From: Gemmatimonadota bacterium
Lineage (GTDB): Bacteria > Gemmatimonadota > Gemmatimonadetes > Longimicrobiales > Gaopeijiaceae
Length of the DNA stretch: 64,000 bases
NCBI GenBank assembly: GCA_030430625.1
Contig: JAUIKL010000005.1
Location: 7,658-71,657, forward strand
Reading direction: 5' to 3'
Every line of letters begins with the position of its first letter. Position 1 is the stretch's first letter. A program made the position numbers and the translations under genes. The notes under the pieces are model-generated. The model had not been told where the DNA came from and did not search any database. It was given only the letters and a program-made list of their open reading frames with translations. Of this stretch, positions 37,040 through 63,373 are shown one piece after another.

Positions 37040-37650
37040 TTCGAGATCAGGACGTAACCGTCGCGGGCGCCCGGAACACCGCCCTTCACGAAGAGCAGGT
37101 TGCGCTCACCATCGACGCGCACGACCTGCAAGTTCCGGATGGTCTTGCGATCCCCACCCATACGCCCGGGCAACCGCTTGCCCTTGATGACGCGGGAGGG
37201 GTCCGTACCCGGGCCCAGCGAGCCCGGGTTACGGGACATCGGGTGACCGTGGGTCGAAGGACGTCCGCCGAAGCCGTGACGTTTCACGACTCCCTGGAAG
37301 CCCTTCCCCTTCGAGCGCCCGGTGACCTTGATTCGGTCGCCGGCCTCGAACTGGGCCACGGTCAACTCCTGACCCACTTCGTAATCCTCACCGTTGGTGG
37401 GGAACTCACGAAGCAGGCGCGGCGCGGCCTCGAGGCCCGCCTTCGCGGCGTGCCCGGCCTCTCCGGCCGACGTCCGCTTTGCCTTCTTGGCGCCGTACCC
37501 GAGCTGAACGGCCTGGTAGCCATCCGCATCGGCACTGCGCACGCTCACGACCGGGCACGGACCTGCTTCAATGACGGTCACGGGGACTTGAACCCCTTCC
37601 TCATTGAAGATCCGGGTCATGCCGATCTTCTTTCCGATCAATCCAGCCAT
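37036..37650 (-). CDS. rplC: 50S ribosomal protein L3
   Basis: MAGLIGKKIGMTRIFNEEGVQVPVTVIEAGPC, GKGFQGVVKRHGF. Confidence 0.95.
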   Translation of the reverse strand: MAGLIGKKIGMTRIFNEEGVQVPVTVIEAGPCPVVSVRSADADGYQAVQLGYGAKKAKRTSAGEAGHAAKAGLEAAPRLLREFPTNGEDYEVGQELTVAQFEAGDRIKVTGRSKGKGFQGVVKRHGFGGRPSTHGHPMSRNPGSLGPGTDPSRVIKGKRLPGRMGGDRKTIRNLQVVRVDGERNLLFVKGGVPGARDGYVLISK

Positions 37651-37667
37651 CTTCCGGAAGTCCTCCG

Positions 37668-37976
37668 TCAGTCGACTTTGATCTCGACGTCGACACCAGC
37701 GGGAAGATCCAGCTTGGTCAACGCGTCGATCGTCTGGGGGCGGCTGTCCACGATATCGATGAGCCGTTTGTGAGTTCGCAGCTCGAACTGCTCACGGCTC
37801 TTCTTGTCGATGTGTGGAGAGCGAAGGACCGTCCACCGCTGGCGACGTGTCGGAAGCGGGATCGGTCCACGGACCGACGCACCCGTCTTCTGAGCCGTAC
37901 GCACGATGTCGGCGGCCGTCTGATCGACCACCCAGTGGTCGAACGCCTTGAGTCGAATTCTGATTCTGTCAGACAT
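37668..37976 (-). CDS. rpsJ: 30S ribosomal protein S10
   Basis: [39 protein letters not shown]. Confidence 0.95.
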
Positions 37977-38347
37977 TGCTTATCCGTTACGGTTCGCGGG
38001 CAGTCGGACCGAGGGTGGCTCGCTCTCGCGAACGCCGCTCGGCGCCGATCACGAGCCTTCCTCTTCCTTCATTCCGCTTCCTCGCTACGGCCGCTACGCG
38101 CGGCCGAGCGTTCCTTCGAGCGAGCCACCCTCGGTCCGAAATCCCGACCGTAGCGGCACGCTTTCCAACTTTTCCTACCAGGTCCTACAACCTCTTCTGT
38201 TTCTGTTGGCCGCGCGAAGCGCCGGCCAGTGCCGGCGATCCACGACCGTGGTGGTGGGGCCCGGTGGCGGGGCCTCTCGAAGCGCGTCTCAGGCCGACTG
38301 CCGTCAACGCGCGGAGAGAGGCCCCGTCATCGGGACCCGCCGGCCTA
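37977..38347 (-). repeat. shared tuf 3' flank / rpsJ leader (copy 1 of the duplicated non-coding segment)
   Basis: The whole tuf-to-rpsJ spacer aligns with 61815..62182 (tuf-to-rpmG spacer). It is near-identical from about 38158 to tuf (single difference at 38186 vs 62021) and diverged but alignable from 37977 to about 38157. Confidence 0.9.
38006..38137 (-). promoter_or_regulatory. long conserved hairpin in the rpsJ leader (candidate structured RNA element), copy 1
   Basis: GGACCGAGGGTGGCTCGCTC (38006-38025) is the perfect reverse complement of GAGCGAGCCACCCTCGGTCC (38118-38137). On the transcribed strand the apical loop reads GAAGCGGAATGAAGGAAGAGGAAGG. Confidence 0.6.
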
Positions 38348-39538
<1,191 letters not shown>

Positions 39539-44640: not shown

Positions 44641-44767
44641 GGGTCACCTCCCTCCATGTCCCGCCACCCCGCCGGTCGATCGACCGGTGCACACGGGAGC
44701 GCACCCAGAGTAGCGGACACACTGCGGTCCCGACACCGCCCCTGTTCTGCCGTGAAGCGGCGAGCAG

Positions 44768-44833
44768 TGTCGGCTCAGGCGGTGTGCGGTGTCGGCTCAG
44801 GCGGTGTGCGGTGTCGGCTCAGGCCGTGTGCGG
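44768..44833. repeat. 3 x 22-bp direct tandem repeat
   Basis: GTGTCGGCTCAGGCGGTGTGCG at 44768-44789 and 44790-44811 (identical), and GTGTCGGCTCAGGCCGTGTGCG at 44812-44833 (1 mismatch). Starts 5 nt downstream of the TonB-receptor stop. Confidence 0.95.
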
Positions 44834-61449: not shown

Positions 61450-61662
61450 TCAAGCCCCGAAGAGGGCCATGATCTGCCCAATGATCCAGCTCACGGACTT
61501 GTCCATGAGCCAGATGATCCCGGAAACCGCGATCGTGAAGAGGAGGACGACCAGGGTGGCCGAGCGCAGCTGATCCTGGTCCGGCCAGGTCACCTTCTGC
61601 AACTCGACCCAGCACTCCTCGATGAAGTTCCGGGTCTCCTTCGCCTTCTCGACCGCGCCCAC
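61450..61662 (-). CDS. secE: preprotein translocase subunit SecE
   Basis: 70 aa, GTG start. ...FIEECWVELQKVTWPDQDQLRSATLVVLLFTIAVSGIIWLMD. Single TM, sits between rpmG and nusG. Confidence 0.9.
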   Translation of the reverse strand: MGAVEKAKETRNFIEECWVELQKVTWPDQDQLRSATLVVLLFTIAVSGIIWLMDKSVSWIIGQIMALFGA

Positions 61663-61814
61663 TATTTCGTTTCCTTGTGCTGCGTGTGCGACTTACAACG
61701 CGGGCAGTACTTACGGTACTCCACGCGCTCCGGGTGGAGCCGTTTGTTCTTCGTCGTGTCGTAGTTCCTCTCCTTACAGTCCTGACAGGCGAGGATCACT
61801 TTATCGCGCGGCAT
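61662..61814 (-). CDS. rpmG: 50S ribosomal protein L33
   Basis: Not in the ORF track (50 aa). Manual translation gives [50 protein letters not shown], then TAG overlapping the secE GTG by 1 nt. Confidence 0.9.
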
Positions 61815-62182
61815 CTGCTGCTCCGTTACGGTTCGCGAAGTGGGGCCGAGGATGGTGCGTCATCGGAACGCCGCTCGGCGCCGATCACGAGCCTTCCTCT
61901 TCCTTCATTCCGCTTCCTCGCTACGGCGGCTACGCGCCGCCGAGCGTTCCTCCTGACGCACCACCCTCGGCCCCAAAGGCGACCGCAGCGGCACGCTTTC
62001 CAACTTTTCCTACCAGGTCCCACAACCTCTTCTGTTTCTGTTGGCCGCGCGAAGCGCCGGCCAGTGCCGGCGATCCACGACCGTGGTGGTGGGGCCCGGT
62101 GGCGGGGCCTCTCGAAGCGCGTCTCAGGCCGACTGCCGTCAACGCGCGGAGAGAGGCCCCGTCATCGGGACCCGCCGGCCTA
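61815..62182 (-). repeat. shared tuf 3' flank / rpmG leader (copy 2 of the duplicated non-coding segment)
   Basis: Aligns end to end with 37977..38347, right up to the start codon of the downstream gene (CGCGAACCGTAACGGAGCAGCAG-ATG here, CGCGAACCGTAACGGATAAGCA-ATG in copy 1). Confidence 0.9.
61842..61974 (-). promoter_or_regulatory. long conserved hairpin in the rpmG leader, copy 2
   Basis: GGGGCCGAGGATGGTGCGTCA (61842-61862) pairs with TGACGCACCACCCTCGGCCCC (61954-61974) with one mismatch. The apical ~90 nt are almost identical to copy 1 (a few compensated substitutions). Confidence 0.6.

Positions 62183-63373
<1,191 letters not shown>

Follow-up and report, generated by a model that had tools for sequence, protein, structure and literature searches.

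A covarying three-way-junction element between tuf and translation-gene operons in Gemmatimonadota

This analysis concerns a structured intergenic element found twice in a 64,000-nucleotide (nt) stretch of Gemmatimonadota DNA (contig JAUIKL010000005.1, positions 7,658 to 71,657; the whole stretch is called the window here, and positions are counted from its first letter). Each copy lies between one of two tuf genes and the operon that follows it, in one case the S10 operon beginning with rpsJ and in the other the operon beginning with rpmG, secE and nusG. The element consists of a conserved three-way junction on a long basal helix of variable sequence, and it represents a new family of structured elements that has no match in Rfam and is restricted, as far as sampled, to Gemmatimonadota. 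An earlier reading of the same sequence (the original prediction) had described a covarying hairpin of some 130 nt with a GGA-rich loop, shared by the two leaders; that observation is confirmed and extended here, and its interpretation is partly supported.

Structure of the two window copies

The element is built from a basal helix (P1), a second short helix (P2) and two arms (P3 and P4), all described in the orientation of the neighbouring genes. Its parts in the window are as follows, with R1 denoting the covariance model used to score the family.

38004-38139, minus strand: element copy 1 (P1-P2-P3-P4), in the 371-nt spacer between tuf and rpsJ; R1 match at 38019-38123, 84.3 bits, E = 6e-19
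38118-38139, minus strand: 5' arm of P1 in copy 1, 22 nt, G-rich, pairing perfectly with 38004-38025
38004-38025, minus strand: 3' arm of P1 in copy 1, the partner of 38118-38139
38107-38113, minus strand: 5' strand of P2 in copy 1 (GAACGC-U), pairing with 38030-38036
38030-38036, minus strand: 3' strand of P2 in copy 1, the partner of 38107-38113
38088-38106, minus strand: P3 hairpin of copy 1, CGGCCGC-GCGUA-GCGGCCG, whose pair 38102/38092 is compensated in copy 2
38037-38085, minus strand: P4 arm of copy 1, in which GC-[GA]-GG pairs with CC-[GA]-GC and the tandem G.A lies at 38082-38083 / 38039-40
61841-61975, minus strand: element copy 2, in the spacer between the second tuf and rpmG-secE-nusG; R1 match at 61855-61959, 80.5 bits
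Parts of copy 2, minus strand: P1 61954-61975 / 61841-61862; P2 61943-61949 / 61866-61872; P3 61924-61942; P4 61873-61921
37990-38152, minus strand: possible outer helix P0 (ACGGUCGGG / CCCG..ACCGU), which would extend the stalk, predicted by RNAfold alone

Folding with RNAfold gives a minimum free energy (MFE) of -89.1 kcal/mol for copy 1 and -89.0 kcal/mol for copy 2, far below the average of -62.8 kcal/mol (standard deviation 4) for dinucleotide shuffles; the z-scores are -6.5 and -6.6, and none of 200 shuffles was as stable. The basal helix P1 has 22 base pairs (bp) in both copies, perfect in copy 1 and with a single G.U in copy 2. The stem of copy 1 had thus been placed correctly in the original prediction, although it is two pairs longer than was claimed, and the equivalent stem proposed for copy 2 is likewise present, with 61954-61975 pairing with 61841-61862. 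Beyond the tandem G.A, the P4 arm of copy 1 continues through an AA/G loop into a distal helix, and its apical purine-rich stretch covers approximately 38046-38075. The putative outer helix P0 would be a weak addition to this fold; it is found in both copies, its sequence is conserved between them, and it ends about 15 nt before the rpsJ start codon.

The differences between the two copies are what first suggest selection on pairing. Within the element they differ at 19 positions, 16 of which make up eight fully compensated pairs: seven in P1 (38138/38005, 38135/38008, 38124/38019, 38123/38020, 38120/38023, 38119/38024 and 38118/38025) and one in the inner hairpin P3 (38102/38092). The remaining differences are a change from G-C to G.U at 38128/38015 and two positions in an internal loop, so that no pair is broken. 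Compensation as such had been recognized earlier, with a count of six pairs that proves too low. Only these two copies are present in the 64-kb window, and both lack one P4 pair through a compensated deletion, GG/CC standing in place of GGC/GCC. A seven-codon open reading frame, MKEEEGS (38049-38072, minus strand; ATG 38072-38070 to TGA 38051-38049), lies with an upstream GAGGA inside the apical purine stretch of both copies; it was rejected as a functional feature, being conserved in no relative (it is absent from L001, L009, L014 and others), and is probably a chance occurrence.

A conserved junction on a variable stalk

The family was analyzed by alignment with RNAalifold and by explicit counts of pairs, and 25 distinct sequences are aligned. 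Across the family the element is approximately 130-160 nt long, and its core is a three-way junction of P2, P3 and P4 set on P1. Helix P2, of 5-7 bp, occurs in three covarying types (GGAACGC/GCGUUCC, CGAGAC/GUCUCG and GGAGGC/GCCUCC), with changes on both sides in four of its seven pairs. P3 has the form CGGnnGC-GCGUA-GCnnCCG, in which the GCGUA loop is invariant in all 25 sequences and the nn pairs appear as CC/GG, CG/CG, UC/GA or CU/AG; the copy in locus L129 has a further variant, UG/CA, in which an otherwise invariant G-C is changed to U-A. P4 follows the pattern GC-[GA]-nGC ... GCn-[GA]-GC. Its tandem G.A is present in 25 of 25, and the pairs beside it covary, from C-G to U-A on one hand and from G-C to C-G and A-U on the other. 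Beyond the tandem G.A come the AA/G loop, a distal GCGG/CCnGC helix and a variable, purine-rich apex of 20-30 nt.

Taken over the core, 94% of cells in the alignment are paired and 10 of the 23 pairs change on both sides. The observed covariation score was reached by none of 500 shuffles, and controls in which the pairing was slid out of register were only 27-55% paired. The case for a selected, covarying structure, made originally from the two window copies, is thus greatly strengthened by the wider alignment. P1 and P2 together form a near-perfect helix of 23-36 pairs in all 25 copies examined, even as the P1 sequences are unrelated to each other; P1 identity is 42-74% between different loci or more distant genomes and reaches at most 93% between recent duplicates or orthologues of close species, as against 68-98% for the core.

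Two details of the earlier description do not carry over to the family. The closure of a purine loop by CGAG...CUCG is specific to the window, since the family pairs GCGAGG with CCGAGC further downstream by way of P4, and the supposed GGA-rich loop is really the 5' strand of P4 together with the apex. The only conserved GGA there is that of GCGGA, which is nearly universal and is located in the distal P4 helix rather than in a hairpin loop; several members (L037 and L047, for example) have a single GGA.

Other structural ideas were tried and set aside. A long-range pairing of GCUCGGCCGC with the second GCGGCCGAGC, considered as a possible switch, was rejected because the covariation of P3 is not mirrored in the 3' strand of P4. 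Loose likenesses to the sarcin-ricin loop, 5S rRNA, the hammerhead core, the K-turn and boxA/boxB, as well as to the T-shaped hairpin of adeno-associated virus type with its GAGC repeats and to retron msr, all misfit the conserved positions and have no Rfam match. A tRNA-like CCA tail after P1 was also discarded, a CCACCA-like motif being present in only about nine of the 25 copies; C/A-rich tails after P1 are seen in many copies.

Distribution of the family

A strict pattern of the core was run over 185,579 species genomes and the matches were rescored with R1; the neighbourhoods of relatives were examined as 8-kb loci, cited here by their L numbers. R1 finds about 30 full-length copies at 70-100 bits, with contig-truncated copies at 46-71 bits, and all of the former are in metagenome-assembled genomes (MAGs) of Gemmatimonadota or in metagenomes (Longimicrobiales and Gemmatimonadales). 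Among the species genomes, true members turned up in Gemmatimonadota only, and chance pattern matches in other phyla score at most 28 bits. Among eight loci from a pattern scan of metagenomes, only L025, from soil, is a true member, the others being chance matches in coding sequence. Viral contigs gave two core-pattern matches, neither confirmed by R1, and BLAST searches of plasmids and phages gave no match to the element.

Searched against the 4227 families of Rfam 15, among them ribosomal-protein leaders, riboswitches, self-cleaving ribozymes, 5S, 6S, SRP, Y RNA and tmRNA, the whole window at the gathering threshold yielded three tRNAs only, and the element region at E <= 10 gave just sub-threshold noise of the miRNA type; the canonical members L037 and L119 gave nothing relevant at E <= 5. 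The statement in the original prediction that the element corresponds to no known ribosomal-protein leader therefore holds for Rfam 15, and full-text literature searches likewise returned nothing relevant to the element.

By the strict pattern, which misses some diverged copies, there are 2-5 copies per MAG (five each in MFD04944 and MFD05684, three in OFTM400). Presence varies even among close relatives. Among contigs that encode an identical S10 protein, L001 has a homologous element with a wholly different P1 and the same core, and L008 and L009 are cut inside the element, because the tuf repeat breaks assemblies; six others (L002, L003, L004, L006, L007 and L010) have a 60-nt spacer with a small hairpin only and lack the element. 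Look-ups through NusG homologues brought out further copies before rpmG in L013, L014, L015, L017 and L129, and also lineages without the element (L018-L023 and L135-L137).

Genomic positions of the copies

The order tuf-element-rpsJ and tuf-element-rpmG is found in Longimicrobiales (the window, L001/L013 and L096/L014) and again in Gemmatimonadales (L123/L037, L049 and L052) and in the unclassified MAGs L115, L064 and L025, so that the sharing of the element by the rpsJ and rpmG leaders, as first described from the window, extends across two orders. The tuf-linked copies are always 3' of tuf, and 20-50 nt separate them from the start codon that follows. Between the two ribosomal copies of the Gemmatimonadales MAG MFD04944 the cores are 80% identical, and flanks and P1 are unrelated (53-58% identity), which indicates that the sharing is not merely a by-product of tuf gene conversion.

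Most copies in Gemmatimonadales genomes adjoin unrelated genes: an ABC permease with a rhodanese, a CoA-transferase III, a hypothetical gene with DivIC-eno, and AsmA, GNAT and LytTR genes. Most of these non-ribosomal copies come after a gene in their own orientation, with a convergent gene on the far side; the distance from the upstream stop codon is 12-15 nt for three of them and about 340 nt for the AsmA-linked pair. At three such sites two Gemmatimonadales species have orthologous copies, with 85-90% identity in the core and 58-63% in the upstream flanks. The element is therefore not a leader specific to ribosomal-protein genes. The original prediction had itself taken dispersed copies beside genes unrelated to translation as evidence against a leader-specific element, and such copies are in part what was found. 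Neither a sigma-70 promoter nor a U-tract terminator was detected at the element (37600-38700 was scanned for terminators), the tails past P1 being C/A-rich rather than U-rich.

Several individual arrangements deserve mention. OFTM400 contains a paralogous repeat of about 330 nt (L036 3470-3800 versus L100 1640-1960) that comprises the element and about 170 nt upstream of it, the upstream part including a GGGAGGGACC...GGUCCCUCCC hairpin and a CAAAGAGUGUGA motif, and this indicates segmental duplication of a larger unit. Locus L119 (MAG MFD05684.bin.2.267) has two canonical copies about 290 nt apart, at 291-395 on the minus strand and 683-787 on the plus strand, in divergent orientation between two convergent genes; their P1 arms are unrelated, and they have private core variants in common, CUGC/GCAG in P3 and GGG/CCC in P4. 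A composite transposon with such a divergent pair as its terminal repeats was considered and rejected, as the outer ends are not conserved and the spacing varies (approximately 375-555 bp). In L025 (287-397, minus strand) and L096 (2544-2656, minus strand) the hairpin proximal to tuf is a bigger three-way junction and a diverged member of the family: read antisense to tuf, it has the family's junction motif (GAGAC-UC-[P3]-AGCGAnGC...GCnGAGCGG-UCUC) with a different P3 and P4, and R1 scores of 32.8 and 24.5 bits; by eye, a similar antisense hairpin is present next to tuf in L001 (2611-2760), L013 and L014 (2080-2160).

The pattern of divergence between copies also varies. In the window genome P1 has diverged (about 70% identity) while the upstream flank and the normally variable apex are 97-100% identical, the opposite of MAG CBDCVV01, where P1 is identical and the apex diverged; the rpsJ copy of L009 has the P1 and P3 alleles of the window's rpmG copy. 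Patchy gene conversion, hairpin-templated mutation or selection may lie behind these opposite patterns.

RNA or DNA, and which strand

Several features point to RNA on the gene-sense strand. The invariant tandem G.A with its covarying neighbours is read on that strand, the other strand reading U.C/C.U; G.U outnumbers A.C there by 34 to 18 in P1 and P2 and by 10 to 5 in the core; and the base of P2 has a candidate invariant U.G. Of 20 copies, 16 have a G-rich 5' arm of P1, and in P1 of L025 four pairs are U.G, each of them on the sense strand. We infer that the element works as RNA on the gene-sense strand. G.T wobbles are tolerated in single-stranded DNA too, so the G.U bias does not by itself rule out a DNA hairpin.

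Possible roles of the element

The reading we favour, tentatively, is a combined one, in which the long helix would be a stalk for processing or stability, acted on by a double-strand RNase, and the conserved junction would bind a putative factor. The element would be part of the tuf transcript, of the 5' leader of the S10 and rpmG-secE-nusG operons, or of both. Its long, sequence-independent helix, which is the type of substrate used by RNase III and a block to exonucleases, would mark a boundary of processing or stability that sets the tuf message, which is very highly expressed, apart from the cistrons downstream, and the junction, either presented in place or released as a small stable RNA, would serve as a platform for a conserved, putative partner. 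The same module would then have been reused before or after unrelated genes in other Gemmatimonadota. That P1 is free in sequence but kept paired fits a double-strand-specific nuclease or an exonuclease block; a site that directly follows tuf and precedes the next start by 20-50 nt, or that is 3' of other genes, fits a boundary between transcript segments; and the conserved sequence of P3 and P4 suggests an additional specific partner, whether protein or RNA. An RNase III site calls for a double-stranded RNA helix of at least about 20 bp, and P1 alone has 22 bp in the window copies, with 23-36 pairs for P1 and P2 together in the 25 copies. Both the cutting by RNase III and the binding of a partner are conjectural. 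Among the four roles put forward in the original prediction (a CsrA/RsmA-type binding site, a decoy for the anti-Shine-Dalgarno of 16S rRNA, a processing or stability element and a REP/MITE-like palindrome), the processing or stability element is the most plausible.

Several findings weigh against this combined reading. A mere processing stalk leaves the sequence conservation of P3 and P4 unexplained; orientation is not strictly tied to the neighbours, as seen in the antisense member of L025 and L096 and the divergent pair of L119; the G.U to A.C bias is only about two to one; the L096 copy folds better on the opposite strand; and the relatives with an identical S10 protein and no element imply that it is dispensable. 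Some of these points would be natural for a selfish, DNA-level palindromic repeat of the REP, REPIN or MITE kind, or for a single-stranded-DNA hairpin read by an HUH-type enzyme or a recombinase, which would have spread by duplication and whose structure would reflect recognition of a DNA hairpin rather than a function in RNA. Such an element could well be present in several dispersed copies per genome beside unrelated genes, in both orientations and even as an inverted pair, could form part of a duplicated unit like the 330-nt one of OFTM400, and could come and go among relatives; the G.U bias is compatible with it, given the tolerance of G.T in single-stranded DNA, and a further point in its favour is that ribosomal genes usually have their sense strand as the lagging-strand template. 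We nevertheless consider it unlikely, if deserving of serious attention. The copy number appears low (two in 64 kb and, by the strict pattern, at most five per MAG), nothing similar is found in plasmids or phages, and variable arms with a conserved apex are the reverse of the terminal repeats that transposases recognize, so that the classic REP or MITE type misfits; the L119 pair has no conserved outer termini, and the invariant tandem G.A with covarying neighbours is a motif of RNA type. The element stays at orthologous positions across orders, and its core is under purifying selection; the retention of the tuf-to-rpsJ and tuf-to-rpmG positions in two orders, together with the conservation of orthologous cores, would point to selection at the level of the host.

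The core might instead be a stand-alone small stable RNA of about 90-110 nt, working in trans within a ribonucleoprotein (RNP) of the Y RNA, 6S or SRP type, with a few gene copies riding on strong units such as tuf and excised via the basal stalk as rRNA and tRNA are. This overlaps with the combined reading and differs in placing the function in trans. Precursors of rRNA have the same build, a conserved core within a long variable stalk made of the 5' and 3' flanks; the sequence of the element's core is conserved whatever the neighbouring genes; independence of orientation suits a separate gene; and two of the copies come after tuf, itself already co-located here with three tRNA genes. That neither promoter nor terminator was detected, that the apical part of P4 varies freely, that no known family of stable RNA matches and that some close relatives lack the element, which would be odd for a housekeeping RNA, together make this a doubtful proposal. 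Its boldest form is no less doubtful: the core would be a new Gemmatimonadota-specific small stable RNA or the RNA half of an RNP, excised from tuf-linked and other transcripts via an RNase III-type stalk and coupling expression of the S10 and rpmG-secE-nusG-L11-L1-L10-L12 operons to a putative conserved partner. Autoregulation of the individual operons, in which a protein encoded nearby (a ribosomal protein of the S10 operon or of the L11/L1/L10 cluster, NusG, S10/NusE or EF-Tu) would bind the junction and control translation or attenuation at rpsJ and rpmG, has the position 20-50 nt upstream of both starts in two orders on its side, along with the retention of both copies even where they are not homogenized. 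It seems improbable, since the two operons have no regulator gene in common besides the tuf upstream of each, three out of five copies in Gemmatimonadales genomes are beside unrelated genes or at convergent 3' ends, the Shine-Dalgarno sequence and start codon lie outside the conserved structure, and no ribosomal-protein leader in Rfam matches. A riboswitch or other ligand-sensing RNA, for which a conserved three-way junction with covarying helices in a 5' leader might speak, is very improbable: the neighbouring genes have no common theme, many copies are at 3' ends, the junction has almost no unpaired conserved nucleotides and the helices are themselves conserved in sequence, there is no expression platform in the form of a terminator or Shine-Dalgarno sequestration, and a P1 of 20-30 bp is atypical for a riboswitch. 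We would give even less credit to a CsrA/RsmA-type sponge or site, or a 16S anti-Shine-Dalgarno decoy, acting through the GGA-rich loop. The window copies do have four GGA motifs in about 30 nt and GCGGA is nearly universal, but GCGGA aside, no part of the core is less conserved than the purine-rich stretch, the one conserved GGA lies within a helix, and several members have no other; both ideas are weakened accordingly.

Relation to known systems

Stalks cut by RNase III are known from the stems of rRNA precursors, from the secE-nusG leader of E. coli and from the rplL-rpoB intercistronic sites. The element resembles them in having a long helix (at least two turns), nearly independent of sequence, that flanks a conserved RNA or lies between cistrons of translation genes, and it is itself found before secE-nusG and between tuf and the next operon. 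It differs in that a conserved three-way junction, found again at unrelated loci, tops its helix, and it has no sequence relationship to the E. coli sites. A second comparison is with REP/BIME elements of enterobacteria and the Correia elements of Neisseria, intergenic multi-copy hairpins of about 100-150 nt that are co-transcribed and act as stabilizers of mRNA or as RNase III substrates. Like them, the element is found within operons and between convergent genes; unlike them, with their conserved arms or termini and tens to hundreds of copies, it has arms unique to each copy, a conserved apex, 2-5 copies by the strict pattern, and positions kept across orders.

The leader of the E. coli S10 operon, site of L4-mediated attenuation and translational control, is also a structured RNA upstream of rpsJ. 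The present element has no Rfam or sequence match to it, is found before rpmG and unrelated genes as well, and has no U-tract terminator hairpin. With Y RNA and other small RNAs composed of a stalk and a module it has in common a long stem formed by the 5' and 3' ends that carries a multi-branched module, in approximately 100-130 nt; there is no Rfam Y RNA match, no linkage to rsr in the loci seen and, because P1 is not conserved, no conserved Ro-binding sequence in the stalk. In its covariation, conserved core, confinement to one phylum and want of an assigned function the element is most like the orphan structured RNA motifs, from which it differs in being unmatched among the Rfam 15 families even at E values up to 5-10. 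Its kind is that of an orphan structured RNA or an intergenic structured repeat.

Surrounding genes and other features of the window

The genes on either side of both copies are all on the minus strand.

38348-39538, minus strand: tuf copy A (396 amino acids), the gene upstream of element copy 1
37668-37976, minus strand: rpsJ (S10), the first gene 3' of copy 1, with its start codon about 27 nt past P1
62183-63373, minus strand: tuf copy B, downstream of tRNA-Tyr, tRNA-Gly and tRNA-Thr and 100% identical to copy A in coding sequence
61662-61814, minus strand: rpmG (L33), the first gene 3' of copy 2, followed by secE, nusG, rplK, rplA, rplJ and rplL
38253-38341, minus strand: second, tuf-proximal hairpin (inverted repeats I3 and I4) directly past the stop codon of tuf, with a twin at 62088-62176

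The names of homologues and the titles of MAGs place the window's proteins in Gemmatimonadota, most likely Longimicrobiales. The spacer between tuf copy B and rpmG is similar to the 371-nt one between copy A and rpsJ. The two tuf copies and about 160 nt of their 3' flank are 100% identical between the loci, and identity falls to about 88% over the last 210 nt or so before the downstream start codons, where the element lies. The identical tract (38187-39538 versus 62022-63373) is approximately 1350 nt long, which suggests concerted evolution of both tuf genes and their flank by gene conversion; metagenome contigs of relatives often end in or beside the tuf repeat (L008, L009, L011, L012, L100 and L104). 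Within this tract is the tuf-proximal hairpin, with arms of 35 nt, an MFE of -66.5 kcal/mol and z = -4.7, and a comparable hairpin follows tuf in L005. Upstream of the element, at about 38155-38200 and 61990-62035 on the minus strand, the sequence is rich in purines and a (G)AAGGACC(A) motif recurs; motifs like it are present in the tuf spacers of L001, L013, L014, L025, L096 and L123. Upstream of the rpsL-rpsG-fusA-tuf region, at 44767-44833, a 22-nt unit (GTGTCGGCTCAGGCGGTGTGCG) is present three times in a perfect-looking tandem repeat, with 97% matches.

Implications for Gemmatimonadota

Hardly any non-coding RNAs have been described from this phylum, which now gains a well-supported family of structured nucleic acids, most likely RNAs; R1 can be applied to any Gemmatimonadota genome. 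That the element is in or next to a duplicated tuf repeat, where contigs often break, helps explain why it has been overlooked. In two orders it is found at key boundaries within the super-cluster of translation genes, tuf|S10 and tuf|rpmG-secE-nusG, which offers a concrete handle on how expression of EF-Tu is separated from, or coordinated with, that of the ribosomal proteins and NusG, and the combination of an invariant junction with a long, fast-evolving stalk may point to an RNA-binding partner.

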